Below, piece after piece: positions 5,484 to 27,524 of a stretch of DNA of 32,670 bases. Below the pieces are notes generated by a model. That model was not told the DNA's origin, did no database searches, and saw only the letters and a program-made list of their open reading frames with translations. Made by a program: the position numbers and the translations under genes. Position 1 is the first letter of the stretch. Each line of letters begins with the position of its first letter. Origin of the DNA: a virus (lineage: Duplodnaviria > Heunggongvirae > Uroviricota > Caudoviricetes); IMG/VR virus record IMGVR_UViG_3300045988_129198. The stretch is one strand, 5' to 3'.

Positions 5484-6674
5484 TTAATTGCTGTTAACCG
5501 AGGTGACCAGATTTGCCAGGTATTTATCGGTAATACGCTGGCGCAGGGTCAGGTTTTCAAGAGGAGGCACCGGTGTATAGTCGTAGTCGATATACAGTTT
5601 TCCGGCCTTGAGGGTTTCCGCATCGTTGGATTCTTCGCTGAACCAGCAGGTCGCATCCACGATATAGCCGTTTGTTTTCAGCTCACGGAATTTGGCATTG
5701 ATGCCGTCAACGATGTCGCGAATCAGCGTTGCGGTGATGGGCTTGTCCACCGCCCACATGTGCGCCTCAGCCATCGTGTCGGCCATCACCTGCGCGGTGC
5801 GGGTGTAGTTTTCAAAGAGGAACAGCGGGTCATCAGAGCAGGTACGGTTACCCCAGAATCGGAAACCGTCGCGGCGAATCAGCGTAGTGACGCCTGACTC
5901 GTTAAGCAGGTCAGCATCGGTGCCGGACTCCTGCAAATCCCAGAATACAGATGCGCTGATGCCGGTAACACCGTTTACCCCGACGTTGGACAGCGTTTTA
6001 TGCCAGCCCTGCTCCTGGTCGATTTTAGCGCGCAGACCCAGCGCACGGGCGGTGGCATACGCGGTGGCGGTGGTACTGGTGACCGTATCCCATGCGAGGA
6101 AATCCGGCCAGATGACCATCAGCTCACGCTGGCTGAAATTCTGGCGGTAGGCTTTCACCTCGGAAATGGTCTTACAGCCCCATGCGCTGATATATCCGAA
6201 AGCGCGCAGCTTCTGACAGACGGATGCCAGTGCAACAGCCACCTCTTTGGTATCCAGTCCCGGCACACCGAGAATACGCGGTTTAACACCGGTTACCGAC
6301 TCCGCCGCCAGCAGGGCTTTTAGTCCGGTGTACTGACCGTTTTCGTCGGTGGTGCCGATGATATTGGAAACGGTCTGCGCGAGTTTCGTTTCCTCGTCAT
6401 CACCGGTGCCGTCTTCCACGCGCACGACAACGGTGACCGGTTTTGACTGGTCAGCGATGGCCTGCAACGATGCCGCCAGCGTGCCTTTTTTACCGGCCTT
6501 TGCAATTGCGCTTTGCACATTGGTAATCAGCACCGGTTTATTGAGGGGGAAGGTTTCCGCATCCGCATCGCTGGCCGTGCAGACCATGCCGACAATGGCA
6601 GTGGATACGGTGGAAATGACGCGGGTGCCGTCGTTAATCTCCAGCACCTGCACGCCATGATGATAGTCACTCAT
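5484..6674 (-). CDS. FI: Contractile tail sheath protein gpFI
   Basis: 396 aa; P2 FI length and position. Confidence 0.9.
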   Translation of the reverse strand: MSDYHHGVQVLEINDGTRVISTVSTAIVGMVCTASDADAETFPLNKPVLITNVQSAIAKAGKKGTLAASLQAIADQSKPVTVVVRVEDGTGDDEETKLAQTVSNIIGTTDENGQYTGLKALLAAESVTGVKPRILGVPGLDTKEVAVALASVCQKLRAFGYISAWGCKTISEVKAYRQNFSQRELMVIWPDFLAWDTVTSTTATAYATARALGLRAKIDQEQGWHKTLSNVGVNGVTGISASVFWDLQESGTDADLLNESGVTTLIRRDGFRFWGNRTCSDDPLFLFENYTRTAQVMADTMAEAHMWAVDKPITATLIRDIVDGINAKFRELKTNGYIVDATCWFSEESNDAETLKAGKLYIDYDYTPVPPLENLTLRQRITDKYLANLVTSVNSN

Positions 6675-6769
6675 CCGTTTAACTCCGTGGTTAATGGGTG
6701 CAACTATTTTCTGTTGTGCAGAGCATAAGACGCTATTTGACCTGGCTGGTCAGTGGATGAAACAACAGA

Positions 6770-6800
6770 TAAAGAAAAGGCGGGCAATTCGCCCGCCTGT
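6770..6800 (-). terminator. Intrinsic terminator between the accessory island / V-G operon and the FI operon
   Basis: GC stem AGGCGGGC-AATT-GCCCGCCT (6777-6800), followed on the minus strand by a T-rich tract (plus 6770-6778 aaagaaaag). Confidence 0.6.
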
Positions 6801-6853
6801 CCTGATTTGTACTCACTCATTTTCCGCCTGACAATTTACATAGCCCAAATGCT

Positions 6854-6876
6854 ATCAAATCTGACAGTCTGCTTTG
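6854..6876 (+). repeat. Repeat site L (core CTGACAGTCT), left boundary of the accessory cassette
   Basis: ATCAAATCTGACAGTCTGCTTTG; a near-identical direct copy at 9164-9186 and an inverted copy at 9287-9308. Confidence 0.7.
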
Positions 6877-7004
6877 AGCGAAAAGTGGACATTAGAGTTA
6901 CAAAAGCAAGTTTAAATCATCCAAAATATTACAATGTCCTTATCTATCTGATATCGTTATGATAAAAAGCTCCTGAATATAATCGATAGTAGGTGGTTAT
7001 TTCC

Positions 7005-7382
7005 ATGAAATCAATTTTAGAGGTTTTTACTCAAGGAAATACTAAAGAAAAACTGGCTGTTATCGCCGATCTCACAACCATTGCGGGAATATCGATTGCA
7101 ACTATTATTGCTGGTTTGTTAACCCTAGTTGCAAAAACAGATAAACTAGATATTGGAAATCTGTTTGGAGTTGTCATAATATCTCTGCTCGGATTGGCTG
7201 GTGTTTGCTGTTTTGTGGCCTTATTTATTTGGGTTATAACCCAAATGTCTAAACCATGGGGAACACCTCGGGGGGTTCAGCCCTTAGTTAAGTGTGCTAT
7301 TTCCCTTATCTTTATCTGTATGTTTTTACTGGCTGTCTTTACATTTTATGAGTTTATTTCTTCGATGAGCATACGCTATTGA
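7005..7382 (+). CDS. Small integral membrane protein (3 predicted TM helices), function unknown
   Basis: ATG at 7005 preceded by AGGTGG; the track ORF begins at GTG 6993. Three hydrophobic segments of about 20-25 aa; AT-rich codon usage unlike the phage backbone. Confidence 0.6.
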   Translation: MKSILEVFTQGNTKEKLAVIADLTTIAGISIATIIAGLLTLVAKTDKLDIGNLFGVVIISLLGLAGVCCFVALFIWVITQMSKPWGTPRGVQPLVKCAISLIFICMFLLAVFTFYEFISSMSIRY

Positions 7383-7404
7383 ATATAAAATCAGCCCCCA
7401 TAAC

Positions 7405-7989
7405 TTAAAAGAGACCTTCTATATCGACTTCAATGCCCAAATAACGGACTGTGCTTTCCAGTTTCTTATGGCCCAACAGAAGTTGGATCACCCGGAGACT
7501 CTTGGTTTTCTTGTAGATTAAGTAAGGTTTTGTTCTTCTCATGGAATGTGTGCTGTACAGCGAATCTTCGAGACCAAGCTTTTCTACCCACCCATGAAAA
7601 ATTCGGTTGTATTGCCGGGTTGATATATGGTGGTTAGTTCCGACCCGAGAGCGGAACAGGAAGCCTTTACTATGCAAGTTGCCGAGCTTTATCAATGCAG
7701 TAACCGCTTCCCTTGTCCCTTTGGTTATCTCAAATTGGACAGGGCTGCCGGTTTTCTGTTGCAACACCGTTGCTCTGCTTGAGACAGAACTGCCATATGC
7801 AGCATCTGATACTTTGAGTTTGACCAAATCACAGCCCCGTAGCTTAGTGTCCAAAGCCATGTTGAACAGAGCTAGATCGCGTGTTTTACCTTCCAACTCA
7901 AGTCTAATCCGGATCCCCCAGATATGAGATATCTGAAGTGGCCTTTTTTGACCGATGGTACGGTCTTTATTCCACGGTGACGTTTTCAT
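7405..7989 (-). CDS. Small tyrosine recombinase (FimB/FimE-like size, phage-integrase catalytic fold)
   Basis: C-terminal HSMRRT...LRVIQLLLGHKKLESTVRYLG resembles the HxxR / LGH / Y boxes of tyrosine recombinases, and LRGCDLVKLKVSD resembles box I. First ATG at 7987-7989 with AGGAG 7 nt upstream; the track ORF extends to a TTG at 8091. Confidence 0.7.
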   Translation of the reverse strand: MKTSPWNKDRTIGQKRPLQISHIWGIRIRLELEGKTRDLALFNMALDTKLRGCDLVKLKVSDAAYGSSVSSRATVLQQKTGSPVQFEITKGTREAVTALIKLGNLHSKGFLFRSRVGTNHHISTRQYNRIFHGWVEKLGLEDSLYSTHSMRRTKPYLIYKKTKSLRVIQLLLGHKKLESTVRYLGIEVDIEGLF

Positions 7990-8095
7990 ATTCAAATCTC
8001 CTGCAATGTGGGAGATTTGAGTATGGTTGTCTCTCAAGAGCGAAAATAAGTCAACTATCACTAGTTGTTGCGCATGTACGTATTCTGTCAATTAA

Positions 8096-8938
8096 TTATT
8101 GACAATCATCAATTCTGGAATGATCAAAATCATCATATCGAATTATAGTCTGGTTGACTGTATCTATTGTTGGTGTCATTTCTGTTATAATATCCTGATA
8201 ACCTAAAGAGTTAAATACATTTACTAAGGCCTCACACCGAAGGGCCGTAGCAATTACAAAATTATAAATTGCCAGCCGTTTATTTTCTTGTTTAACTGCA
8301 AGAATGAATTCGATAGCAGTATTTTCATCACTTTGGATTGCATTATATAGAGATACTATATTTACCATATCATCAGAGAATGTATGTATTGAATCACAAA
8401 GGGGAACGTAATGGGCATGATAGTGTGTTTCCCAGCCAATTAATTCAAAAAGTTTTCTGGTTCCTGGATATTCAGGTGTATTTGGCCACAATCTATTAAA
8501 TAGATCAGTTAGTTCTTTTCCCATGCGAATCCTTTCATTTGCTGCTGGATTAGTCATTCCTTTGGATTTTAAACACTCCAGCCACCGTTTTCCATTACTA
8601 TGAACTAATTTCTTACTAGCCTTGAGTAATGCTTGTGCATTTTCGCCATCATCTATTGCTATATAAAATTGATTGGCAGCCTGTTCTATTATAACCCTAG
8701 CTAATACTTCCGATGCTGAAAAGGCTCCTATATTCAAAGAAGAGATAGCCTGATTACTAAGTTCATTCAGTACATTAAAGTACTGTAAGACCATCAATTT
8801 TTGTTCCACACCCTTTAGGTTGTCTATTTTATTTTTATGCTCCTCAAATTTTGCATGGATATATTTATTTATCGCGGCTATTTTTTTTACATCTTCGTCA
8901 AGATCAAACGGGCAACGTCCAAACAATTCTTTTTTCAT
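8096..8938 (-). CDS. Hypothetical 280-aa protein (cargo gene, no motif recognised)
   Basis: ATG at 8936-8938 with strong AGGAGA RBS; AT-rich; located upstream of and co-oriented with the recombinase gene. Confidence 0.75.
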   Translation of the reverse strand: MKKELFGRCPFDLDEDVKKIAAINKYIHAKFEEHKNKIDNLKGVEQKLMVLQYFNVLNELSNQAISSLNIGAFSASEVLARVIIEQAANQFYIAIDDGENAQALLKASKKLVHSNGKRWLECLKSKGMTNPAANERIRMGKELTDLFNRLWPNTPEYPGTRKLFELIGWETHYHAHYVPLCDSIHTFSDDMVNIVSLYNAIQSDENTAIEFILAVKQENKRLAIYNFVIATALRCEALVNVFNSLGYQDIITEMTPTIDTVNQTIIRYDDFDHSRIDDCQ

Positions 8939-9163
8939 ATATTTCTCCTGTTGTACAAGCTTCCATACGTTGGCAGATTATACACTGAAGATTACCTATA
9001 AATAGCTGTGCGGGATAGCAGATCAGTGCAAGAAGTACAACCAAGTGAACTGTGCGTATTCAGATACCTGGCCTAACGTTCGCGATAGCCGTCCCCTGCA
9101 CGAAGCCATATATTAGATGTATTAGCTCAGACCTTATCTGACAGGTTGAGTAGGTAGAATCTA

Positions 9164-9186
9164 ATCAAAGCTGACAGTCTGGTTTG
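9164..9186 (+). repeat. Repeat site M (direct copy of L)
   Basis: ATCAAAGCTGACAGTCTGGTTTG, 21/23 identical to site L. Confidence 0.7.
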
Positions 9187-9286
9187 GACTGTGAGTTCAA
9201 CTGATGGATGCAACACACAGCGATCTACGGACATTACTAGCATAGCTGTGTATTAATCATCGGGAAGCAGGTCAGTCCGCTCCTAG

Positions 9287-9308
9287 CACAGAGCAGACTG
9301 TCAGATTA
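9287..9308 (-). repeat. Repeat site R (inverted copy of L/M), lying in the loop and 5' arm of a 10-bp-stem hairpin
   Basis: Reverse complement AATCTGACAGTCTGCTCTGTGC; 16 nt identical to L; flanked by stem 9284-9293 / 9316-9325 (TAGCACAGAG/CTCTGTGCTA). Confidence 0.7.
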
Positions 9309-9359
9309 GGCTTTACTCTGTGCTATAGATACGTTAGCTCACTCCAGAGATCATACAAC

Positions 9360-9887
9360 TTATTGCGGCATTTCCGGCCATTCAGGATTTGCAGGATCCA
9401 CACGGCTGACCAGAACACTGTAGCGTTCCCATGCTTCCAGTCGGCTACGCTCCTCATCTGTTGCCATATTCAGTCTGACAGAGCGTTCCAGTGGCTGAAT
9501 GATAGTTTCAGCTTCGGAAAGCAAAGCTGACTTCTGTAATTCCGCCAGTTGCAGCTGTTCGTCTGCCGTATAAATCCGCTTAATCACGGCACCATCCTTA
9601 AACATCCATTTACCTGAGTCATCAGCACGTCGGTTGGCGGTAATATCAGGAACCTCGACAACGCTAAAACCTTCAGGGTTGAGCGTTGAAGCATCTCTGG
9701 TGATGCCGACAATTATATTATTCTCATCGTAAACAATCTTTATCGTGTCTTCCTGAAAATTACTTACTTCCTCATACCAGTTTTTTCCCTCTTCGGACCA
9801 TAACCAGATAACATCAAAATTTTTTGTCAGTTGATATTGGGCAACAGTTTTTGGATTACCCGCAGTAATATTTTTTAAATGCTGCAT
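9360..9887 (-). CDS. G: Tail fiber assembly chaperone gpG
   Basis: 175 aa; P2 gpG size; immediately downstream of H. Confidence 0.85.
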
Positions 9888-9890
9888 AAA

Positions 9891-12626
9891 TTACACCTGT
9901 GCGACGTTATACCATGTGCCATTGATGTATTTTTGTATTGGTCTGAATACTGCGGGGTCATCACCATCGACTTCACCGACAATACCAAGCCCGGTAATTA
10001 CGTGCCCTGCTTTCTCATACATCACCCCTTTCTGCATGGTCTGGACAACACGTGTGCCAAGTCTGACATCTCTCACATAGCGGGAATCAAAGTTACCGTA
10101 ATCCGAGGGATTAACACGCCCCGTAATATTTATGGTTTTATTACTTTGAACGCTTCCGGAGACAAAGCGCATAACATGGACGCTATTAGCATAAACATCC
10201 AGATTACCATCACCATTTTGTTTAAAGCCCGTGTCATTATCACCCAAAACAATCGAATTACCGCCAAGAGCACTGGATGTTCCTATACCCAGAGCACCAT
10301 TCAATTGACCACCAGATAACGGCAGTGCACCGACATCTCCCGCTGTAGGTTTTCGCGTTGTGGTATAAAACTCAGACCAGTCAGCCTCGAATCCGTAACC
10401 GTCACGAGCAGAACGATAAAAAATACCACCGTTCTTATAATTAACGCGAAACTGGGCGGCGGGACAACTTCCTTCCCCGATATTAAAATGAAGAATTAAC
10501 GTTGATGCCCCACCAATAGTTGCGTTATAGGCTCCGCTACTCCAGTTCCATCCAACGGCTTTATCATTCGCAACGGTGTCTCCTGTTTTTCCTGAAGCAA
10601 ATGCACCAATACTTTTCGGCGTCAGGTTAATATCTGATGTTCCATCAAACGAAACGTTATTAATTTTACGGGCTGTTTTCAGCTTTGTTGCTGTCGCCGC
10701 ATTGCCGGACAGTTCACCAGAAAGGCCAGCACTGAATGTCTGTTTCGCGCCCCATGTCTGGGCTTCGTCAATGATTGGTACTCGTCTTGTTGTGATCGTG
10801 CGGCCTCCCGGATTTCCTGAAATGCGCACCATAAAAAAGCGGTAGTTGGCTTTACTTACAGTGCTGCGCCATACATGCATTGAGCGCCCCGAACCAGAAT
10901 CATCACTCGGACCGACTGAGATGTTTATCAGGTTGCCATCAATGACGCCCCAGTCCATACCGTCGGGAATGTTGGTCATATTATCAAGCCGAACGGTTAT
11001 CAGACTGCCCGGCACAAAATCGTAGGTCTGCCAGTCCAGACTGGATAGTTTTGCCACTGCGCCACCGATGCCCAGATTCAGAGGCAACGAAAAGGAGTTA
11101 TATACTTCTCGCCATTCGGTCCATTTGCTCCCGGCATAGACGCGCTCAAAAGTGCGCCCCTGTGTGGTTTCTGATTTCCCTGTGGTTGTGTAACGCTGCC
11201 AGACAGATACACCATCAAAACGCCTGATTACTTCCAGTATTCCAAGCAGTGTCGCTCCAGCGGTATCCTGCATTGGACCGTTTGACGCCTTCCCTGTAAC
11301 GCTGTAAATGCCTGGCGAAGTCAGATCATTCAAATCACCTTCGTAATAACGACATTCTGACTGATGGCCTACTCTTGACCACGGCTCCCACTGTGGGTTC
11401 TGTGCATTCCATATAGCAGAAAGGCAGCGAACATATACGTTCCCACGGCGGGTCGTATAGCGTTGCGTGCGTGAGTACCCACCACCCTCAAGAACTTCAA
11501 GGAATCCCTGACCATAACTTCCTTCTTCCGGATAGTTGCGGTCAAATGAAGCGATAGTGCCACTACTGTTTCGCCATAAACCAAGATGCTCTGCGCCTCC
11601 TAGCGTGTTCAGGTCAATAGTTGTGCTCAGGGGGCGTGTTGCAGACTGAATCTGACGCCAGTAGATCCACGGACCGTCTGAGCCATTCCAGGTGCCAGAA
11701 AGATTACGCATATAAACATTGCCAGTTCTGGTGGTATAACGCTGCATTCCGGAAAAATTACCGCCATTGAATACCTCAAGAACACCGACTGCACCGTCTT
11801 CAGGGAAATTTTTCTCCAGTGTTGCGTTGGAGGATGTGGATTTATACCAGACACCCACATAAGCCTTAACTGGACCAAATGTATTGAGATCAGCATCAAC
11901 CGGCATTTCGCCGTTGTTTTTCATAAACGTCAGGCTGGTAACACCAATATTGTCCAGAAAAGCTGATTTATCCTGGATATCTGCACCGTTCTGATTTTTC
12001 GCCAGACGTGAATTTGCGTTGTCATTTGCTGCCTTGACCGCTTTTGGCGTTGCCGCCAGCTCTTCACTGGTGCTGTTTGTTGCACTGCTTAACTGAGTAA
12101 AACCTTTTTCTGTCAGCGTGGCGTCAGGATGGCGGCGGGACTGCTCATGCTCTGCGATTTTGTCATCGACGTAATCCTGCGTCGCCATCACTGTGCTGGC
12201 ATCAATACTCAGCTCAACGGACGCCACGTTGCTGAGAATAATAACCATGCGGCAGGTCTGCGCACGTCCGGAGCCTTCAGCCAGTTCTGGCTTATAGCTT
12301 TCAGCCATGTTGGATACCGCAATCAGTGTTCCGGCATCGTCATACAGACCAAGCTCACGCATCCAGAAGCCGCCCACTTCGGGCGGTACAACCAGTTCAG
12401 CCACAATATAGTTTTTATTCTTATTATCCACACTGACTTTATTCAGAGCGTGACGCCAGACCTCATGCACCAGTTTCGTCTGACCGGCATCCGGCACCGG
12501 TAATTTGCCATTACCGTCACCCACGGCCATTGCAGACAGGTTTACTTTTTTCCCGCCGGGGACAGTGGCGGCTGCCAGCTTTGCGGCTCCGGCAGTAGTG
12601 ATAACGGTTTTAAATTTCGTGCTCAT
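9891..12626 (-). CDS. H: Tail fiber protein gpH (911 aa, three internal tandem repeats, extended C-terminal region)
   Basis: N-terminus MSTKFKTVITTAGAAKLAAA is the conserved P2 H baseplate-attachment region; three repeats of about 90 aa each contain QRYTT(R/T)xGNVY. Confidence 0.9.
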   Translation of the reverse strand: MSTKFKTVITTAGAAKLAAATVPGGKKVNLSAMAVGDGNGKLPVPDAGQTKLVHEVWRHALNKVSVDNKNKNYIVAELVVPPEVGGFWMRELGLYDDAGTLIAVSNMAESYKPELAEGSGRAQTCRMVIILSNVASVELSIDASTVMATQDYVDDKIAEHEQSRRHPDATLTEKGFTQLSSATNSTSEELAATPKAVKAANDNANSRLAKNQNGADIQDKSAFLDNIGVTSLTFMKNNGEMPVDADLNTFGPVKAYVGVWYKSTSSNATLEKNFPEDGAVGVLEVFNGGNFSGMQRYTTRTGNVYMRNLSGTWNGSDGPWIYWRQIQSATRPLSTTIDLNTLGGAEHLGLWRNSSGTIASFDRNYPEEGSYGQGFLEVLEGGGYSRTQRYTTRRGNVYVRCLSAIWNAQNPQWEPWSRVGHQSECRYYEGDLNDLTSPGIYSVTGKASNGPMQDTAGATLLGILEVIRRFDGVSVWQRYTTTGKSETTQGRTFERVYAGSKWTEWREVYNSFSLPLNLGIGGAVAKLSSLDWQTYDFVPGSLITVRLDNMTNIPDGMDWGVIDGNLINISVGPSDDSGSGRSMHVWRSTVSKANYRFFMVRISGNPGGRTITTRRVPIIDEAQTWGAKQTFSAGLSGELSGNAATATKLKTARKINNVSFDGTSDINLTPKSIGAFASGKTGDTVANDKAVGWNWSSGAYNATIGGASTLILHFNIGEGSCPAAQFRVNYKNGGIFYRSARDGYGFEADWSEFYTTTRKPTAGDVGALPLSGGQLNGALGIGTSSALGGNSIVLGDNDTGFKQNGDGNLDVYANSVHVMRFVSGSVQSNKTINITGRVNPSDYGNFDSRYVRDVRLGTRVVQTMQKGVMYEKAGHVITGLGIVGEVDGDDPAVFRPIQKYINGTWYNVAQV

Positions 12627-14072: not shown

Positions 14073-14420
14073 TCAACTCACAGGGATGGTTAACGAAAGT
14101 GGCTGGCCGGTGTCGTTGTGCTGACCGGTTAACGTGACCGTCATTCGCCCGTCAAAACTGCGCTCAGTGGTGACGGATGACAGGGTGACGCGGGGTTCCC
14201 ATTTCAGCACCGCCATGTAACAGGCGACCTTAATCTGCAACTCAAGCGCCGGAGTCTGCGGCTGGTCAATCATTGACGCCAGCAACGAGCCGTAATCACG
14301 ACGCATCACCCGCGAGCCGACCGGTGTGCGCAGGATATCGCCGATACTCTGGCTGATATGCTCAAGGTCAGTGACAGTCAGGCCATCACTGCGATTCATT
14401 CCGAGATAACGCGCAGTCAT
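14073..14420 (-). CDS. W: Baseplate wedge protein gpW
   Basis: 115 aa; P2 gpW size and position. Confidence 0.9.
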   Translation of the reverse strand: MTARYLGMNRSDGLTVTDLEHISQSIGDILRTPVGSRVMRRDYGSLLASMIDQPQTPALELQIKVACYMAVLKWEPRVTLSSVTTERSFDGRMTVTLTGQHNDTGQPLSLTIPVS

Positions 14421-15052
14421 AGAGGTCCCCCGGTTGTGCCGCCGCTGTCGCCGGGGTGTTTATGGGTATGCAGTACCTTACCGTTTGATGAGAGTTCACC
14501 GCCGGTGTGTTCAATGTTGCCGCGCATCGTCCCGCCCTTCTGTACTTCCAGCGTGCCGGTAATCAGTCTGTTGGTGCAGACCACCTCCGGGGTGTCCAGG
14601 GTGATGCGGGTTGACGCTTTCACCATGACTACCGGCACCGTGGCGGTAACAGAATCAGAAGCCGTCACGCTGGCCGTTTTAATTCCGCTTACCATCAGTG
14701 CACTGGTTTCAGGTTCATACTCAATCACCGCCCCGTCAGGGAAACGTATGTGCAGGGCATCCGCCGACGCAGACGGCGGAGGGTTATCGCCGGAATAAAT
14801 CCCCGGCAGAACGAACGCCGTGTCGAGTTCACCGCCCACGGCCAGAATCAGCACCTGTTCCCCCACGGAAGGTGCCCACCATGTGCGTGAACGTCCGGCA
14901 CGATGGGTCAGCCACTGAAGCCAGTCGGTGCACATGCCGCCGGTCTGCACACGGCAGCGACCGGCGTTAAGGTCGGTTTCGACGATAATGCCGGGGCGTA
15001 TCATGTTGCGCAGTGCGCGCGCGAGTTCCTGGATATTTGCGAGTGTTTTCAT
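14417..15052 (-). CDS. V: Baseplate spike protein gpV
   Basis: 211 aa from the ATG at 15050-15052 (MKTLANIQELARALRNMI...), the P2 gpV length; the track ORF extends upstream to a TTG. Confidence 0.9.
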   Translation of the reverse strand: MKTLANIQELARALRNMIRPGIIVETDLNAGRCRVQTGGMCTDWLQWLTHRAGRSRTWWAPSVGEQVLILAVGGELDTAFVLPGIYSGDNPPPSASADALHIRFPDGAVIEYEPETSALMVSGIKTASVTASDSVTATVPVVMVKASTRITLDTPEVVCTNRLITGTLEVQKGGTMRGNIEHTGGELSSNGKVLHTHKHPGDSGGTTGGPL

Positions 15053-15109
15053 AAGATCTAGCATGCTGCTGAGAACTGATGAGAACAATAAAAGAGTGTT
15101 TTTCTAAGG

Positions 15110-15142
15110 TTGACACAACACTCCATTTGAAGTGAATATAAT
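15110..15142 (+). promoter_or_regulatory. Putative sigma70-type promoter for the RelA/SpoT-like gene
   Basis: TTGACA at 15110-15115 and TATAAT at 15137-15142; the 21-nt spacing is non-optimal, so the call is tentative. Confidence 0.3.
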
Positions 15143-15185
15143 GATTACTTAACTGGCAAAAAAACATCCTCACTAATTGGAGCCA

Positions 15186-16277
15186 ATGGATACACGCATG
15201 TCAGACATTCTAATTACTTATGATGAACGGAAAGATAAATTTGAGTCCTATGCCCTTACTCTTAAATCGTTATTAACCACGTTAATTCGCAATGAAAAAA
15301 TTTCAATTCACTCACTTGAATCAAGAGTTAAAACAAAAAAAAGCCTTGAAGGTAAGATTAATAAAAAGGGAAAATACAAGTCTATAGATGATATTACTGA
15401 TATCGTTGGTATCAGGATCATCACACATTATGCTGATGATGTTGATAAGATAGCTGCTATAGTTGAAAAGGAGTTCACCATTGACCAAGAGAACTCTATT
15501 GATAAAAGAACCTCAATTGCGCCTGATAAATTTGGTTACCTATCACTTCATTATATAGTAACTTTAAACTCAACCAGAACAAACTTAAAAGAATATGAAG
15601 TATATAAAAACATCAAAGCCGAATTACAAATACGATCAATCCTTCAGCATGCCTGGGCGGAGATTGAACACGACATTGGTTATAAGTCGGCCACAGGACT
15701 GCCTAATGAAATAAGAAGATACTTTTCACGCTTAGCTGGTCTTTTAGAAATGGCCGATGATGAATTTATTAAAATCAGAAAAAAGATTTCTGAACGGCAG
15801 AAAGAGGTTGCAAAAGAACTAGAGCAAGGAACTAGTGATTCAGTTTTAGATATTTTCACTTTGGATGAGTTCTTAAACACAAGTCGAATTATGAGTGAAC
15901 TTTCAGAAGAGATAAAAGAAAAAACAGGAATCACAGTACATGGCCGATACAAGGATAAAGATTTGGGATACCTACTAAATGGTTTAAACCTAGCCAACAT
16001 AACTACAATAGAACAACTCAATCAAAAACTCTCACAAATGAAAAAGCAGATCGTAGATAGAATATTCTGCTTCGGAGAACCATTTATTAATTATTGCAGA
16101 GAAACCCCCATGCCAAAAGAAGCTCTTTTGAGTTATTTATGTCAAATTATCGTTGCGTTTCAAAACTCACCTTCGTTAGAATCTGAATTTAATAACAAAG
16201 CAGGTTTAAATCTGAAAAACAGCAATATCTCCGATTTTTTCTCGAATATAAGAGAAAACATAAGCACACAACCTTAG
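15186..16277 (+). CDS. RelA/SpoT-domain nucleotidyltransferase (toxSAS), candidate fused toxin-antitoxin of CapRel type
   Basis: Synthetase-domain signatures SRVKTKKSLEGKI...DIVGIRIITHYADD and ELQIRSILQHAWAEIEHDIGYK. About 363 aa with a C-terminal domain of about 150 aa with no recognisable motif. Start is ambiguous (TTG 15177, ATG 15186 or ATG 15198). AT-rich, on the opposite strand to the flanking late genes, at the P2 orf30 position. Confidence 0.8.
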   Translation: MDTRMSDILITYDERKDKFESYALTLKSLLTTLIRNEKISIHSLESRVKTKKSLEGKINKKGKYKSIDDITDIVGIRIITHYADDVDKIAAIVEKEFTIDQENSIDKRTSIAPDKFGYLSLHYIVTLNSTRTNLKEYEVYKNIKAELQIRSILQHAWAEIEHDIGYKSATGLPNEIRRYFSRLAGLLEMADDEFIKIRKKISERQKEVAKELEQGTSDSVLDIFTLDEFLNTSRIMSELSEEIKEKTGITVHGRYKDKDLGYLLNGLNLANITTIEQLNQKLSQMKKQIVDRIFCFGEPFINYCRETPMPKEALLSYLCQIIVAFQNSPSLESEFNNKAGLNLKNSNISDFFSNIRENISTQP

Positions 16278-16307
16278 CTTTAGTTTTAACGTATTCTAAC
16301 AGAAGAC

Positions 16308-16333
16308 TGCTGCCGGTAAGCACCGGCAGCAGC
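16308..16333. terminator. Hairpin between the convergent RelA/SpoT-like gene and S
   Basis: Stem CTGCTGCCGGT / ACCGGCAGCAG with 4-nt loop; only a modest U-tract on either strand. Confidence 0.45.
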
Positions 16334-16357: not shown

Positions 16358-16810
16358 CTAACGCTCAAGGTGAGCCAGGATAATCTCTTCAATCATCTGC
16401 ACATCCTCACCGGTAAAGCCGAGCAGAGGACGCGCCGGATAATCAATTTTCTTACCGTCTTTCCGGGTTTCTTCCGACAGACCGAACTGATGCACACTGG
16501 CGATTTTCGGTGACTTTCCGCCGTAAAACTCCATTGATGCCTGTTCTGGGCTGGCGCGGATATGCAAAAAACGACTGGTGATAAGTTTCGCAAACATTTT
16601 TCGCTTAACACGACCGGTCTTTTTTCTGGCGCTCTGCTGCTGGCGTGGTGCGTAGGGTGTGCCGTCCGGGGCTTTCTGTGCCATCACCCGGCACTGCTGA
16701 CTCTGCCGCAGATGTTTCGCCAGTTCGGTGCTCAGTCGCCGACGCCCTGATGGTGACAGTGATTCAATCAGCCCGGTCAGCCGGTCTTCAAAACGCTTAA
16801 ACTCATTCAT
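16358..16810 (-). CDS. S: Tail completion protein gpS
   Basis: 150 aa; P2 gpS size and position. Confidence 0.9.
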   Translation of the reverse strand: MNEFKRFEDRLTGLIESLSPSGRRRLSTELAKHLRQSQQCRVMAQKAPDGTPYAPRQQQSARKKTGRVKRKMFAKLITSRFLHIRASPEQASMEFYGGKSPKIASVHQFGLSEETRKDGKKIDYPARPLLGFTGEDVQMIEEIILAHLER

Positions 16811-25853: not shown

Positions 25854-26477
25854 TCATACTAACTTGTCTATTGAAATTACAAGCTTTTCGATGAAGTTCT
25901 TAACTACTACCATATCATCACCAGTTATGGGCCAAGGCTCACGAGGTGTAATTGGTTGCATGTCACCTTCATGTGCTATCTTATTACGTCGATCAACAAT
26001 CGCATTCAGATTTAATCTCAGTGACTTAGATTCTAAATCGGCATTACTATTCGTAGCACCTTGATCTATTGCAACCTCTCTCCACAAGGAAATATTTGAA
26101 ATCAGCCTAATTCCATCAGCAATAGATTCACTGGTTTGATACGTTTGAATCCCAAGTTGTCGCCTAACTTCTAAGTCATAAATTTGGTCACGAGTCCAAG
26201 CGTTGTTAAAAATATTATTCATAACACTATGGGGCATTGTAAACTTATCGTATTTCTGCGTACTAGCCCTCCTTCCCTGAAAAATCTCAAGCATCCGCTG
26301 CGCGACAAGTTCATGAATATATAAATCTAAAGCAGAAACTCTAGCAACCCACTCAGCTCTCAGAATTTCTCGAGAATCAAATACACTCGAAAAATTAGTA
26401 GAAGTATAAGCATATGTCACAGATAACAAATCACATCTAATCCAAGCACGGTCAAATATCGATTTTGGCGTTGACAT
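25854..26477 (-). CDS. Hypothetical 207-aa protein with an R-x4-H motif (candidate HEPN-like RNase effector)
   Basis: C-proximal IVDRRNKIAHEGD contains R-N-x3-H; AT-rich; starts 4 nt after the upstream ParA-like gene's stop. Confidence 0.6.
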   Translation of the reverse strand: MSTPKSIFDRAWIRCDLLSVTYAYTSTNFSSVFDSREILRAEWVARVSALDLYIHELVAQRMLEIFQGRRASTQKYDKFTMPHSVMNNIFNNAWTRDQIYDLEVRRQLGIQTYQTSESIADGIRLISNISLWREVAIDQGATNSNADLESKSLRLNLNAIVDRRNKIAHEGDMQPITPREPWPITGDDMVVVKNFIEKLVISIDKLV

Positions 26478-26480
26478 ACT

Positions 26481-27524
26481 TCAATCTCTTGTCAGGGCGA
26501 TAACCCTTTCTGCACAAGTGTCAAATGCAGCAGAAAATACAGTCATATTTTTTTCCGTCTGATCCCAAACAGCGCCTTTCTGACCAGTCTGTTGGGCTGT
26601 CAGTGTGTAGACTGGAACTTGAAATTCCTGAGACATAGCAATCAGACTATTGAAATCAGAGACTTCCATTATTGGGTCAGAAGGAGGCATCCCTGCTTTT
26701 TGCTCAAACTCGACTACATCCAACATATCAAACTCAACAAGTTTCGGGATTAGCAAAGAAATTAAGTTATCTCGAAGTTCATCAATCCATTTTTGGAAGG
26801 CCGCAGATGCCTGACCATTGCGTGGTCTATACTTTTGGACGATAGAACCTATAAATTTCACGTTAGACTCAGGGAATGGATAGTTAGCATTCTGGAGCAA
26901 CTCCATTCGTGAAGCCATGTTTGCCCATTGTTTCCATCTTGGTAAAGTACGAGCGAGAGAAGAAAGGGCCATCGACGAGAAATAATCAGGATGAAGAGGT
27001 ACGATAAAATAATCTGATGTAGTTAAAATGTTTTGGTTCAATGGCCCCAGGCTCGGGCTCATATCAACAATCACATAATCTGCATTTACTTTTTCAGCAG
27101 TTAGGTCAAACAAATACCTGATAGAACCAGGAAGGTTTTTAAGTGGTAATAATGACCCCGTTAATTCTTGAGCTACACCTAATGTAGTTTCATACTCAGA
27201 AAGCCCAATATGGCCGGCAAGAAGATGCAAGTTTGCATTACCCTCGATATCAAACACTTCTGCAGGTTCAATCGCACTTGGTTTAGACTCAAAAGCAGGA
27301 GAAAGGGCGTCACGAATATTATTGGCTACTGGTTGATTATAAATCTGTTCTAAATCCGCAATGCCTCTAAATCCAAGAATCATTCCGGTAAGATTACATT
27401 GTGGATCACAATCAGCTAGCAAAACCTTATGACCTTTCTCAGCCAACTTCCAACCTAAGTTAAACGCAGTAGTAGTTTTACTTACTCCACCCTTATGATT
27501 AAACAAACAGATTACCTTCGCCAT
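26481..27524 (-). CDS. ParA/MinD-family P-loop ATPase
   Basis: Deviant Walker A KGGVSKTT near the N-terminus, DCDPQ A' motif and hydrophobic Walker B (YVIVDMSP); 347 aa; AT-rich. Confidence 0.8.
   Translation of the reverse strand: MAKVICLFNHKGGVSKTTTAFNLGWKLAEKGHKVLLADCDPQCNLTGMILGFRGIADLEQIYNQPVANNIRDALSPAFESKPSAIEPAEVFDIEGNANLHLLAGHIGLSEYETTLGVAQELTGSLLPLKNLPGSIRYLFDLTAEKVNADYVIVDMSPSLGPLNQNILTTSDYFIVPLHPDYFSSMALSSLARTLPRWKQWANMASRMELLQNANYPFPESNVKFIGSIVQKYRPRNGQASAAFQKWIDELRDNLISLLIPKLVEFDMLDVVEFEQKAGMPPSDPIMEVSDFNSLIAMSQEFQVPVYTLTAQQTGQKGAVWDQTEKNMTVFSAAFDTCAERVIALTRD

Follow-up and report, generated by a model that had tools for sequence, protein, structure and literature searches.

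What brings cargo into the slot between genes FI and G of P2-like phages, and what is the three-gene island that fills it here? Defence hotspots of phages and their satellites have become a main source from which new immune systems are drawn. A survey published in 2026, covering thousands of P2 and P4 elements, still treated the mechanism of exchange at such hotspots as open and judged transposons, homologous recombination and domain homology to be unsatisfying explanations (PMC13586616). We examined one hotspot in a window of 32,670 nucleotides from a virus of the Caudoviricetes, following an earlier note on the same DNA that had suggested either a phase-variable module or a self-mobile cassette.

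The Z/fun island and its boundaries

The ORF listing of the window places FI at 5484-6674, G at 9360-9887 and H at 9891-12626, all on the minus strand, with three genes between FI and G that encode a transmembrane (TM) protein, a tyrosine recombinase and a DUF5677 protein. An AT-rich insert with three extra genes at the Z/fun site was what the earlier note had described, and both the ORFs and the base composition agree: the insert is 2.4 kb long and AT-rich, with a GC content of 0.32-0.46 against 0.55-0.59 in the flanks. Alignment of the window with five other P2-like phages delimits the variable segment as 6891/6896 to 9274. A search of 5426 complete E. coli genomes found the island at 99.6-99.9% identity in 36, S88 and ATCC 11775 among them; none of the 50,697 phage records searched contains it. 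No family of PADLOC-DB v2.0.0 matched any of the three proteins at E<=1, in keeping with the note's view that this is not a described defence system. NCBIfam returned no equivalog and Rfam no RNA family for the island, and we found no mention of the three protein accessions in any paper or in the supplements of Rousset 2022. IS3 insertions and a deletion variant were seen, as in ordinary decay.

Related sites mark both edges of the variable segment. At the left (6828-6890, plus strand), the conserved P2 flank (6828-6866) precedes a G-type 24-bp core, GTCTGCTTTGAGCGAAAAGTGGAC, at 6867-6890; at the right (9275-9335, minus strand), a C-type 24-bp core, GTCTGCTCTGTGCTAGGAGCGGAC, lies at 9298-9275, and conserved P2 flank runs on to the stop codon of gene G. 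Both cores face the cargo, and both sites are kept in all six of the P2-like phages compared, homology at the left ending at 6893-6896. The locus comparison that the note had proposed was run, and it returned the same boundaries in all P2-likes compared, whatever the cargo. Between the slot and the FI promoter region, the P2 backbone has a hairpin that resembles a terminator, GGCGGGCgaattGCCCGCC with a run of T after it (6778-6798, minus strand); this hairpin is kept in all P2-likes.

The two boundary cores are palindromic and have common arms, GTCCGCT/AGCGGAC, with different centres; the left core departs from the G consensus at four positions and the right core from the C consensus at two. 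The same inverted arms characterize the 24-bp cores as a family, around a central region of ~10 bp that comes in two versions, C (cTGTGCCAGg) and G (tTGAGCGAGg); of the composite sites, 27/27 and 25/27 show the difference at the two diagnostic spacer positions. In their layout, with arms of 7-8 bp inverted about a centre of 8-10 bp, the sites are typical of tyrosine-recombinase cores. An HMM built from 29 non-P2 composite sites only, searched against the 32.7-kb window, matched 6851-6895 (E=4e-7) and 9275-9313 (E=1.9e-6), with no other significant match there (next best E>1). By this criterion of sequence similarity, the boundaries of the P2 slot are members of a site family associated with the recombinase.

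The palindromes formed by the composite sites are imperfect, with mismatches at two constant positions. Reading these sites as attC-like folded hairpins is unsupported: whether paired as one long hairpin or as two short ones, they showed no covariation beyond shuffles, and we therefore take the symmetry of the cores as protein-binding arms. Most copies of the core do not have the form of a T-tailed terminator.

The recombinase, its neighbours and a deletion junction

The recombinase gene (7405-7989, minus strand) encodes 194 aa from the RefSeq ATG. Its product matches PF00589 at 64.4 bits (cut-off 27.1; E 1.4e-17), and R51, K79, H148, R151, H174 and the catalytic Y183 are invariant in an alignment of 26 family members, which bears out the catalytic boxes read earlier. 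All of these residues except K79 align to XerD (R148/H244/R247/H270/Y279). The protein is a catalytic domain alone, preceded by ~35 residues without an obvious core-binding domain; the XerD profile match spans the catalytic domain only, and the N-terminal core-binding domain of Xer, Cre and IntI was not found in it. With 7984 homologues scored, the best 120 of them at 73-95% identity, the window recombinase is by alignment a member of a large conserved family of ~200-aa proteins.

A predicted leader hairpin of 19 pairs (7986-8026, minus strand) buries the Shine-Dalgarno sequence and ATG of the gene and is kept, with compensatory variants, in three related loci (L016, L024, L066); a family-wide, alignment-based fold of the leader gave no result, start positions being different. 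Directly upstream of the leader is a degenerate G-type core (GTCTCTCAAGAGCGAAAATAAGTC; 8029-8052, plus strand), whose DUF5677-proximal arm has decayed. Its position matches that of the G-type core found 63 nt upstream of the recombinase gene in many canonical loci, and homology to the L024 recombinase unit starts within it, at 8046.

In size and as a lone catalytic domain, the protein recalls FimB and FimE. This likeness, a 33-nt imperfect inverted repeat around the island and the hairpin over the recombinase start could all fit the phase-variable module of the earlier note, in which a FimB/FimE-like inversion would switch expression of the DUF5677 or the membrane protein. However, the likeness holds for size and does not extend to the invertase models, PRK09871 and PRK09870 scoring 19.4 and 13.8 bits against cut-offs of ~220. 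The flanking repeat is P2 backbone, there whatever the cargo, and the outer cores differ in their central regions. Tyrosine recombinases require matching central regions for complete strand exchange. No inverted pair of like sites was found around a promoter, copies of the island are collinear in all 30 E. coli genomes among the matches listed, and family members stand in cassette arrays, not at invertible switches. We regard a phase switch as highly improbable.

At its 3' end the gene departs from its relatives. The protein ends in ...VDIEGLF in place of the canonical ...VDDALEISESIEV, homology to every relative stops at 7423, and no site follows the stop codon, where canonical ~200-aa members, ending in ...VRYLGIEVDDALEISESIEV, have a hairpin and a C-type half-site. 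Judged from the shared part (73-95% identity), the window recombinase is a family member by descent and a truncated copy, which may be impaired. Up to position 7423 lies the remaining part of a TM cassette (6891-7423, plus strand), which carries the 3-TM gene and, of the terminator hairpin of this gene, the left half (AAAAGAGACCTTCTAT). The gene is a 129-aa ORF at 6993-7382 (plus strand) from GTG 6993, or 125 aa from the RefSeq start at 7005; in the 125-aa form it has three hydrophobic stretches, and the protein matches phrog_4155 (E 3e-84). The cassette occurs in 64 E. coli genomes, 28 of them without the window recombinase. It is the sole cargo of the P2 slot of KSC207 and the second of two cassettes in that of NQ3, and it is also found within a non-P2 array (L204). 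Homology of KSC207 to the window breaks at 7423, in the loop of the terminator hairpin, which is also where the match to all other recombinase genes ends. By these coinciding breaks, the junction is an internal deletion that cost the recombinase its last 12 codons and its own C> site, and the TM cassette ~325 nt. The 2.4-kb block is therefore now flanked by the two outer sites only.

The 280-aa protein (8096-8938, minus strand) had been taken for an orphan without a motif. It is in fact a member of PF18928 (DUF5677; 40.1 bits, cut-off 27.1, E 5e-10, residues 50-194), it matches phrog_4167 (E 2e-202), and its RefSeq name is DUF5677 domain-containing protein. Its AlphaFold model is all-alpha, with ten helices (pLDDT 94.9), and R81, E85, Y173 and H185 are invariant. 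Membership of the HEPN superfamily, whose mark is a four-helix fold with an Rx4-6H motif, was considered for this protein. Upstream of the gene, a repeat search and weak HMM hits (E 1.5-5, not significant alone) point to relic partial sites at 9138-9239: 9138-9195 repeats the left-boundary flank and left arm in direct orientation at 71% identity, and 9219-9239, on the minus strand, corresponds to the left arm and half-spacer of a G-type core. In four lambdoid prophages (L007-L010), DUF5677 is accompanied by the region up to 9223. This third copy at 9138-9195 could be taken for the direct repeat of a simple insertion; we rejected that as the main explanation, since the region accompanies DUF5677 in lambdoid prophages and the deletion at 7423 is the real internal junction.

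Could the DUF5677 protein and the recombinase form a two-gene unit, with the recombinase as a defence effector or DUF5677 as a recombination accessory or directionality factor? The two genes run in the same direction with 106 nt and a decayed site between them, and the pair is linked at 87-89% nucleotide identity in P2-like and lambdoid phages, two unrelated types; DUF5677 is also reported as enriched beside serine recombinases in Bacillota (PMC12632615). Yet DUF5677 homologues occur without the recombinase, those at 41-53% identity standing alone in other prophage accessory regions, the recombinase family neighbours cargo of any kind, and the lambdoid copies have a 73-nt deletion in the recombinase with DUF5677 intact. 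Moreover, the Bacillota DUF5677 ORF that was tested against six phages is outside the five ORFs reported as defensive (PMC12632615). A two-gene unit is, in our estimation, improbable. Nor do all three genes make up one system: the TM cassette stands alone in other P2 slots, and DUF5677 homologues are found without a recombinase. We read the DUF5677 and 3-TM proteins as independent cargo, probably with anti-phage or exclusion functions.

Cassette arrays and proposed exchange between unrelated elements

Elsewhere, in lambdoid prophages, ICEs, islands and plasmids, the recombinase gene again lies within these sites. Enterobacterales loci have it between a G core and a C core, and in ~40 of 47 canonical loci a hairpin directly 3' of the stop codon is followed by TGTGCCAnnAGCGGAC and then by locus-specific sequence. 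Members from Betaproteobacteria (58-65% identity) keep this layout of stop codon, hairpin and (C/T)GGCCAnnAGCGGAC(A/G)TT, the half-site after the stop codon being kept down to 58% identity. A scan of 2 Mb found 261 cores, where a binomial estimate gave ~3-4 expected by chance, all at the loosest threshold. Their arrangement is consistently C> ... <G, with composite <G-18-C> junctions, so that an array reads C> cargo <G-18 bp-C> cargo <G on the recombinase strand; the recombinase gene stands in place of the 18-bp linker, between <G and C>.

Between the sites of these arrays lie cassettes of 0.5-9 kb, rich in known defence genes. The cargo includes PD-T7-1, Lit, type IV mREase, JukA, dGTPase and HEPN_LA2681, as well as AbiJ-like/PDC-S32, DUF4238, an OLD-like nuclease, AAA_15/21+HNH and TIR/SEFIR proteins. 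Many cassettes carry no annotation. Of the 80 viral loci, 77 have no recombinase within reach, and for these slots the enzyme would therefore have to work in trans, unless a different enzyme served the sites.

Sites, array grammar, cargo content, site-bounded cassette identity and the deletion junction were read directly from the DNA. One such case is the HAD+NUDIX cassette of phage P2_4C9. A lambdoid prophage has, in a hotspot between Q/RusA/DUF968 and DUF977, a cassette that matches it at 99.3% identity over 1491 nt, and the outer bases of the two cores mark both limits of the homology. The slot of NQ3 holds a DUF6650 and a TM cassette with a composite site between them, and both cassettes also occur in a non-P2 array. 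The right arm of this composite site goes with the TM cassette and its left arm with whatever precedes, a pattern of arm swapping that fits a crossover inside the core.

These observations also bear on whether the sites are recombinase targets at all. They might instead be backbone terminators, regulatory hairpins or targets of another enzyme, with cargo turned over by homologous or illegitimate recombination and the recombinase a decaying passenger. Such a view would accommodate the many slots without a recombinase nearby, the lack of covariation or structural signal, the 3' truncation of the window recombinase by an illegitimate junction, and the IS3 insertions and deletion variant as ordinary decay. 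It accounts poorly, however, for identical cassettes in unrelated phages without flanking homology and with breakpoints at the cores, for the NQ3 arm swap, or for a gene embedded between G and C cores with a post-stop half-site so widely kept. The arm/centre layout is that of tyrosine-recombinase cores, and most copies are not T-tailed terminators. We consider this explanation unlikely.

We think it likely, then, that the island is a site-specific cassette array in the Z/fun slot, with the recombinase as its cognate enzyme, and neither a phase switch nor a three-gene defence system. Our preferred reading is an array of two cassettes (DUF5677 / recombinase / TM) with an internal deletion. On the minus strand the proposed order would be C> (9298-9275), the DUF5677 cassette, the decayed <G (8052-8029), the recombinase, the deletion, the rest of the TM cassette and <G (6890-6867). 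The window locus itself may be inert, because the canonical tail and 3' site are missing and the upstream site is degenerate.

We infer that the recombinase catalyses the exchange; the pathway given here and the function of the cargo are put forward on the same footing. The C and G central regions would act as two non-interchangeable versions of the core. Recombination between like sites in direct orientation would excise a circle consisting of cargo and one composite site, and in the reverse reaction the circle could enter any site of either type, C or G. Through C-by-C and G-by-G events in pairs, whole cassettes would then be swapped between elements without other homology. Neither circles nor inversions nor excision variants were seen.

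More broadly, we lean, with some reserve, toward an unnamed integron-like system, made up of a ~200-aa tyrosine recombinase and two heterospecific 24-bp cores, that would create and service hotspots and move anti-phage cassettes between unrelated elements: P2 Z/fun, the lambdoid replication-nin region (including flxA of the E. coli K-12 Qin prophage), ICEs, islands and plasmids. If true, it would account for the otherwise unexplained exchange of defences between elements without common homology. The self-mobile cassette of the earlier note finds support in a more specific form: the recombinase typifies a site-specific cassette system, and the sites of that system double as the hotspot boundaries. 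With a recombinase family, two core sites and an array grammar in hand, cargo exchange at hotspots becomes directly testable. The cores also give sequence-based limits to cassettes, by which new defence genes can be found from their flanks, and the system may offer a natural tool for heterospecific-site exchange.

Comparison with known systems

One precedent concerns the same locus. Inverted repeats flanking fun, allowing site-specific exchange, are credited to Nilsson et al. (2004; Nilsson, Karlsson & Haggard-Ljungquist) in a 2022 review (PMC8987985). As the review presents them, these are very probably the same repeats, and the inference, site-specific exchange of cargo between phages and bacterial genomes, is the same as ours. 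Part of the present picture may thus already be described in Nilsson et al. (2004), which we cite through that review. We found no paper that names an enzyme for the fun-flanking repeats and no match to the core sequences in any paper. A recombinase, a division of the cores into two types, a grammar of arrays and a connection with the arrays of lambdoid phages, ICEs and plasmids were likewise absent from the literature read, in which Nilsson et al. (2004) is represented by PMC8987985. The recombinase family is a candidate enzyme for the repeats noted in 2004.

Like the FimB/FimE invertases, the recombinase has ~200 aa and a catalytic domain with a short N-terminal extension; unlike them, it scores far below the threshold of their models, has no invertible promoter segment beside it and belongs to a context of cassette arrays.

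The resemblance to integrons is more extensive. In both, a tyrosine recombinase gene lies beside a fixed site and is followed by an array of short cassettes, mostly of 1-3 genes, separated by imperfectly palindromic composite sites of ~60-70 nt. Cassettes start after ...GAC|GTT-like ends, and the cargo is rich in anti-phage genes, as has recently been reported for integron cassettes (bioRxiv 10.1101/2024.07.02.601686). The enzyme, however, has ~200 aa against ~320-340 aa for an integron integrase, and the integrase models TIGR02249 and PRK15417, with cut-offs of 265 and 435, give it 17.8-17.9 bits. Its gene is followed by the fixed site on the downstream side, whereas the fixed site of integrons is upstream of a divergent intI. 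The cores are of two heterospecific types, and the cassettes are larger and lie in either orientation, so without a single Pc logic. The sites show no sign of a folded single-strand substrate, with no covariation beyond shuffles, and the arrays lie within phages, ICEs and islands.

The pdif modules of Acinetobacter plasmids differ in that their modules depend on host XerCD, while here a small recombinase is dedicated and element-borne. It scores 42.7 bits with the XerC model (cut-off 335) and 25 bits with the XerD model (cut-off 330), and the cores, as read from sequence, are unrelated to dif (11-6-11). In other respects, both pdif modules and laboratory RMCE with heterospecific lox or FRT sites are close parallels: modules lie between oppositely oriented sites, occur in many backbones and are exchanged without flanking homology, and common arms with differing centres would permit swapping while blocking deletion and inversion.

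An AT-rich island of three genes between FI and G

The ORF listing shows that the window holds a complete P2-like prophage, in which GC content falls from 0.55-0.59 to 0.32-0.46 between the tail sheath gene FI (5484-6674, minus strand) and the tail-fibre assembly gene G (9360-9887, minus strand), with the fibre gene H next. Three genes occupy this insert: one for a protein of 125/129 aa with three hydrophobic helices (TM protein; 6993/7005-7382, plus strand; equal to phrog_4155), one for a tyrosine recombinase of 194 aa (7405-7989, minus strand; PF00589, 1.4e-17) and one for a protein of 280 aa (8096-8938, minus strand). The insert and its recombinase, both described in the earlier note, are thus borne out by the gene inventory, the GC drop, the family matches and the occurrence of the island at 99.6-99.9% identity in 36 of 5426 complete E. 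coli genomes, including S88, ATCC 11775 and APEC O1/O2 strains. No copy turned up among 50,697 phage records. The 280-aa protein has the length and position first reported, but it does not lack a recognizable motif, being a member of DUF5677 (equal to phrog_4167). The PADLOC models matched none of the three proteins, in agreement with the view that this is not a described defense system. Against NCBIfam, the best matches of the recombinase were XerA, XerC, an invertase and an integron integrase, all far under the cut-offs.

The DUF5677 protein is predicted to fold into ten helices (pLDDT 94.9), and R81, E85, Y173 and H185 are invariant; fold searches gave nothing more specific than generic bundles and a weak resemblance to HEPN. 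Its homologues at 41-53% identity stand alone in other prophage accessory regions, beside defense genes. A preprint reports DUF5677 enriched next to serine recombinases in Bacillota, and its single tested DUF5677 ORF falls outside the five that protected in assays with six Enterococcus phages (PMC12632615). The TM protein had no informative match. Judging by context, the chances seem about even that the DUF5677 and TM proteins are anti-phage or exclusion cargo.

Other inserts were observed in the window. A third AT-rich insert (15055-16332, GC 0.35) lies between the baseplate spike gene V (14417-15088) and the tail completion gene S (16358-16810), and two prophages that otherwise hardly differ from this one lack it (L027, L054). 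The protein that it encodes, 366 aa long with a RelA/SpoT domain (15177-16277, plus strand; PF04607, 1.9e-21; PADLOC candidate PDC-S33, 1e-16), looks like a toxSAS/CapRel-like defense candidate, and neither core type of the cassette system described below flanks the insert. At the other classical P2 hotspot, tin/old, a ParA-like AAA_31 ATPase of 346 aa is followed by a HEPN RiboL-PSP protein of 206 aa (25854-27524, minus strand). These two possibly form a two-gene defense system; a weak PDC-M28B match of the ATPase was the only PADLOC result there.

Core sites and their arrangement

Alignment of the window flanks with five P2-like phages having other cargo delimited the slot: left homology stops at about 6893-6896 and right homology restarts at 9275. 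Both ends consist of a 24-bp core with inverted arms, GTCTGCT-TTGAGCGAAA-AGTGGAC on the left (6867-6890, plus strand) and GTCTGCT-CTGTGCTAGG-AGCGGAC on the right (9298-9275, minus strand). Such repeats as such were already known: a 2022 review (PMC8987985) credits the inverted repeats around fun, and the idea that they enable site-specific exchange, to Nilsson et al. (2004, Mol Biol Evol 21:1).

When 2 Mb of collected loci were scanned with a 24-bp consensus for each of two core types and a tolerance of six mismatches, 261 cores were found, where about 3-4 would be expected by chance (binomial estimate), all at the loosest threshold. The two types share identical arms and differ in their centers, cTGTGCCAGg in C and tTGAGCGAGg in G. 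Read on the recombinase strand, with arrowheads for orientation, arrays take the form C> cargo <G-18 bp-C> cargo <G, and the recombinase gene is flanked by <G 63 nt upstream and C> 19 nt past its stop codon. An HMM built solely from 29 non-P2 composite sites (<G-18 bp-C> junctions between neighboring cassettes) matched exactly the two slot boundaries (E 4e-7 and 1.9e-6), all other matches in the 32.7-kb window having E>1. The 17-mer CTGTGCCAGGAGCGGAC found beside the recombinase in canonical loci, those with a complete recombinase C-terminus and its own C> site, is identical to the right boundary of the P2 slot.

In an alignment of 28 composite sites, the two center positions that distinguish C from G were mismatched in 27/27 and 25/27 cases, and arm pairing showed no covariation beyond shuffles. 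These observations point to protein-binding arms as the source of the arm symmetry, rather than to a site that folds, and the centers may be heterospecific overlap regions.

The recombinase family and proposed cassette exchange

Among 7984 scored homologues of the recombinase, the best 120 have 73-95% identity, are nearly all 194-203 aa long and come from Proteus, Providencia, Pantoea, Idiomarina, Cycloclasticus and other hosts. Scanning one genome per species gave more than 593 loci, with identity down to 58% in Betaproteobacteria, and 845 of 5426 complete E. coli genomes carry the gene. It stands between cargo blocks in a Providencia island, an ICE-like element and lambdoid prophages. In canonical loci a hairpin and TGTGCCAnnAGCGGAC directly follow the stop codon, with locus-specific sequence beyond; distant family members also have a hairpin and then (C/T)GGCCAnnAGCGGAC(A/G)TT after the stop codon. 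The spacer reads TGTGCCA in Gammaproteobacteria and CGGCCA in Betaproteobacteria. Canonical members include the 200-aa protein of a lambdoid array in E. coli FDAARGOS_433 (L138) and cluster P0012. Upstream, a 19-pair hairpin (7986-8026) hides the Shine-Dalgarno sequence and start codon; it is also present at other loci (L016, L024, L066) and is retained in relatives with compensatory changes. This suggests that read-through transcripts would not be translated into recombinase, an arrangement known from some insertion sequences.

Comparisons between unrelated elements point to the cores as the limits of exchange. The HAD-phosphatase and NUDIX cassette of the P2-like phage P2_4C9 (L004, 567-2057) recurs in a lambdoid prophage (L160, 5887-7377) between Q/RusA/DUF968 and DUF977, at 99.3% identity over 1491 nt; the match ends at the outer bases of both cores, and the two loci have no other sequence in common. 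The P2 slot of strain NQ3 has the order G> DUF6650 <C-18-G> TM <C, and its DUF6650 and TM pair recurs at 98.2% identity within an array of four cassettes on a non-P2 viral contig. The arm AAAAGTGGACATT accompanies the TM cassette at every occurrence while the opposite arm matches whatever stands before it, which would place the crossover between the left arm and the center of the core. We infer from these comparisons that cassettes move by way of core sites, and each mechanistic step is likewise deduced from comparative sequence. That the cores have nothing to do with the recombinase is a less likely alternative. It agrees poorly with the position of the gene, which has a G core on one side and a C core on the other across the Enterobacterales loci, and with the finding that the sites delimit exchange between unrelated phages; a downstream half-site is retained in distant family members too.

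The island itself appears to have a deletion in its history. The slot of strain KSC207 contains the TM cassette alone and is homologous to the window from FI to exactly 7423, beyond which KSC207 has 325 nt more cassette and then a C core. Position 7423 is the loop of the TM-cassette terminator hairpin (AAAAGAGACCTT-CTAT-AAGGTCTCTTTT) and also the end of window recombinase homology to every relative. This break accounts for a recombinase that ends in IEGLF instead of the last 12 canonical codons and is missing its own C> site. The simplest account would start from an array of the form C> DUF5677 <G recombinase C> TM <G, which then lost an internal segment in a single deletion. In the <G core that precedes the recombinase (8029-8052), the arm nearer to DUF5677 has decayed, and the 336 nt upstream of DUF5677 contain relic partial sites (9138-9195 and 9219-9239).

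Further rearrangements were seen around these genes. A P2-like prophage (L054; IMG/VR 646862326_000003) has the same island minus 1046 bp (window 6839-7884); it has lost the left core, the TM gene and the greater part of the recombinase but keeps DUF5677. IS3-family insertions have entered the DUF5677 module or its immediate surroundings in a lambdoid prophage (L007, 4483-5696) and in a P2 island copy of E. coli GPEC128-620 (H45); the insertion in L007 sits where homology to the window ends, at 9223.

Lambdoid prophages carry the DUF5677 and recombinase pair at 87-89% identity, with a 73-nt deletion in their recombinase. A functional pairing of the two proteins is possible, but the data do not require it. 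The earlier proposal of a phase-variable, recombinase-switched module is unlikely, since the flanking cores are heterospecific, the island copies listed are all collinear and the family was not found at switches. The other proposal of the earlier note, a self-mobile cassette, gains support in a narrower sense: sequence comparison supports site-bounded cassette exchange. The window recombinase, which has lost its C-terminal codons and its own site, may be impaired.

Cargo range and relation to known systems

The first locus set comprised 56 cassettes (44 distinct) of 0.5-9 kb, mostly with 1-3 ORFs in either orientation. Sampled cargo included PD-T7-1, Lit, a type IV methyl-directed restriction enzyme, JukA with a partner protein, a dGTPase, two HEPN_LA2681 proteins, an AbiJ-like/PDC-S32 protein, DUF4238, an OLD-like nuclease, and AAA_15/21+HNH and TIR/SEFIR proteins. 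Regulators, transporters and enzymes also occur in chromosomal and plasmid arrays, and many cassettes have no annotation. The C> ... <G pairing recurs in a recombinase-independent sample of 90 IMG/VR contigs with the exact strict C core, 80 of which were read: 32 had a P2-like context and 45 lay elsewhere, several P2 slots held two to four cassettes, and a recombinase was within reach in only 3/80.

In marine metagenome and genome contigs (L020-L023), an ICE-like element with CobT/VWA, RadC and a Toprim primase has the recombinase between an arsenic-resistance and a copper-resistance block; the cassette system is therefore not limited to defense cargo. In the Qin prophage of E. coli K-12 MG1655 (L229; NC_000913.3, 1645981-1646995), flxA, between relB and ydfW, has a C-type and a G-type core on either side (E 7e-8 and 2e-6 with the non-P2 HMM), so this strain has a one-cassette slot of the system. 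The annotated ydfV ORF overlaps the C core, and no recombinase lies near the slot.

The literature searched contained no description of the recombinase family, the two core types or the array grammar, and nothing in it connected the P2 slot with the arrays of lambdoid prophages, ICEs and plasmids. The most recent survey of P2/P4 hotspots treats the exchange mechanism as open (PMC13586616). The system described here, known from comparative sequence, is of the same general kind as integrons and dif modules, which are likewise site-specific cassette systems.
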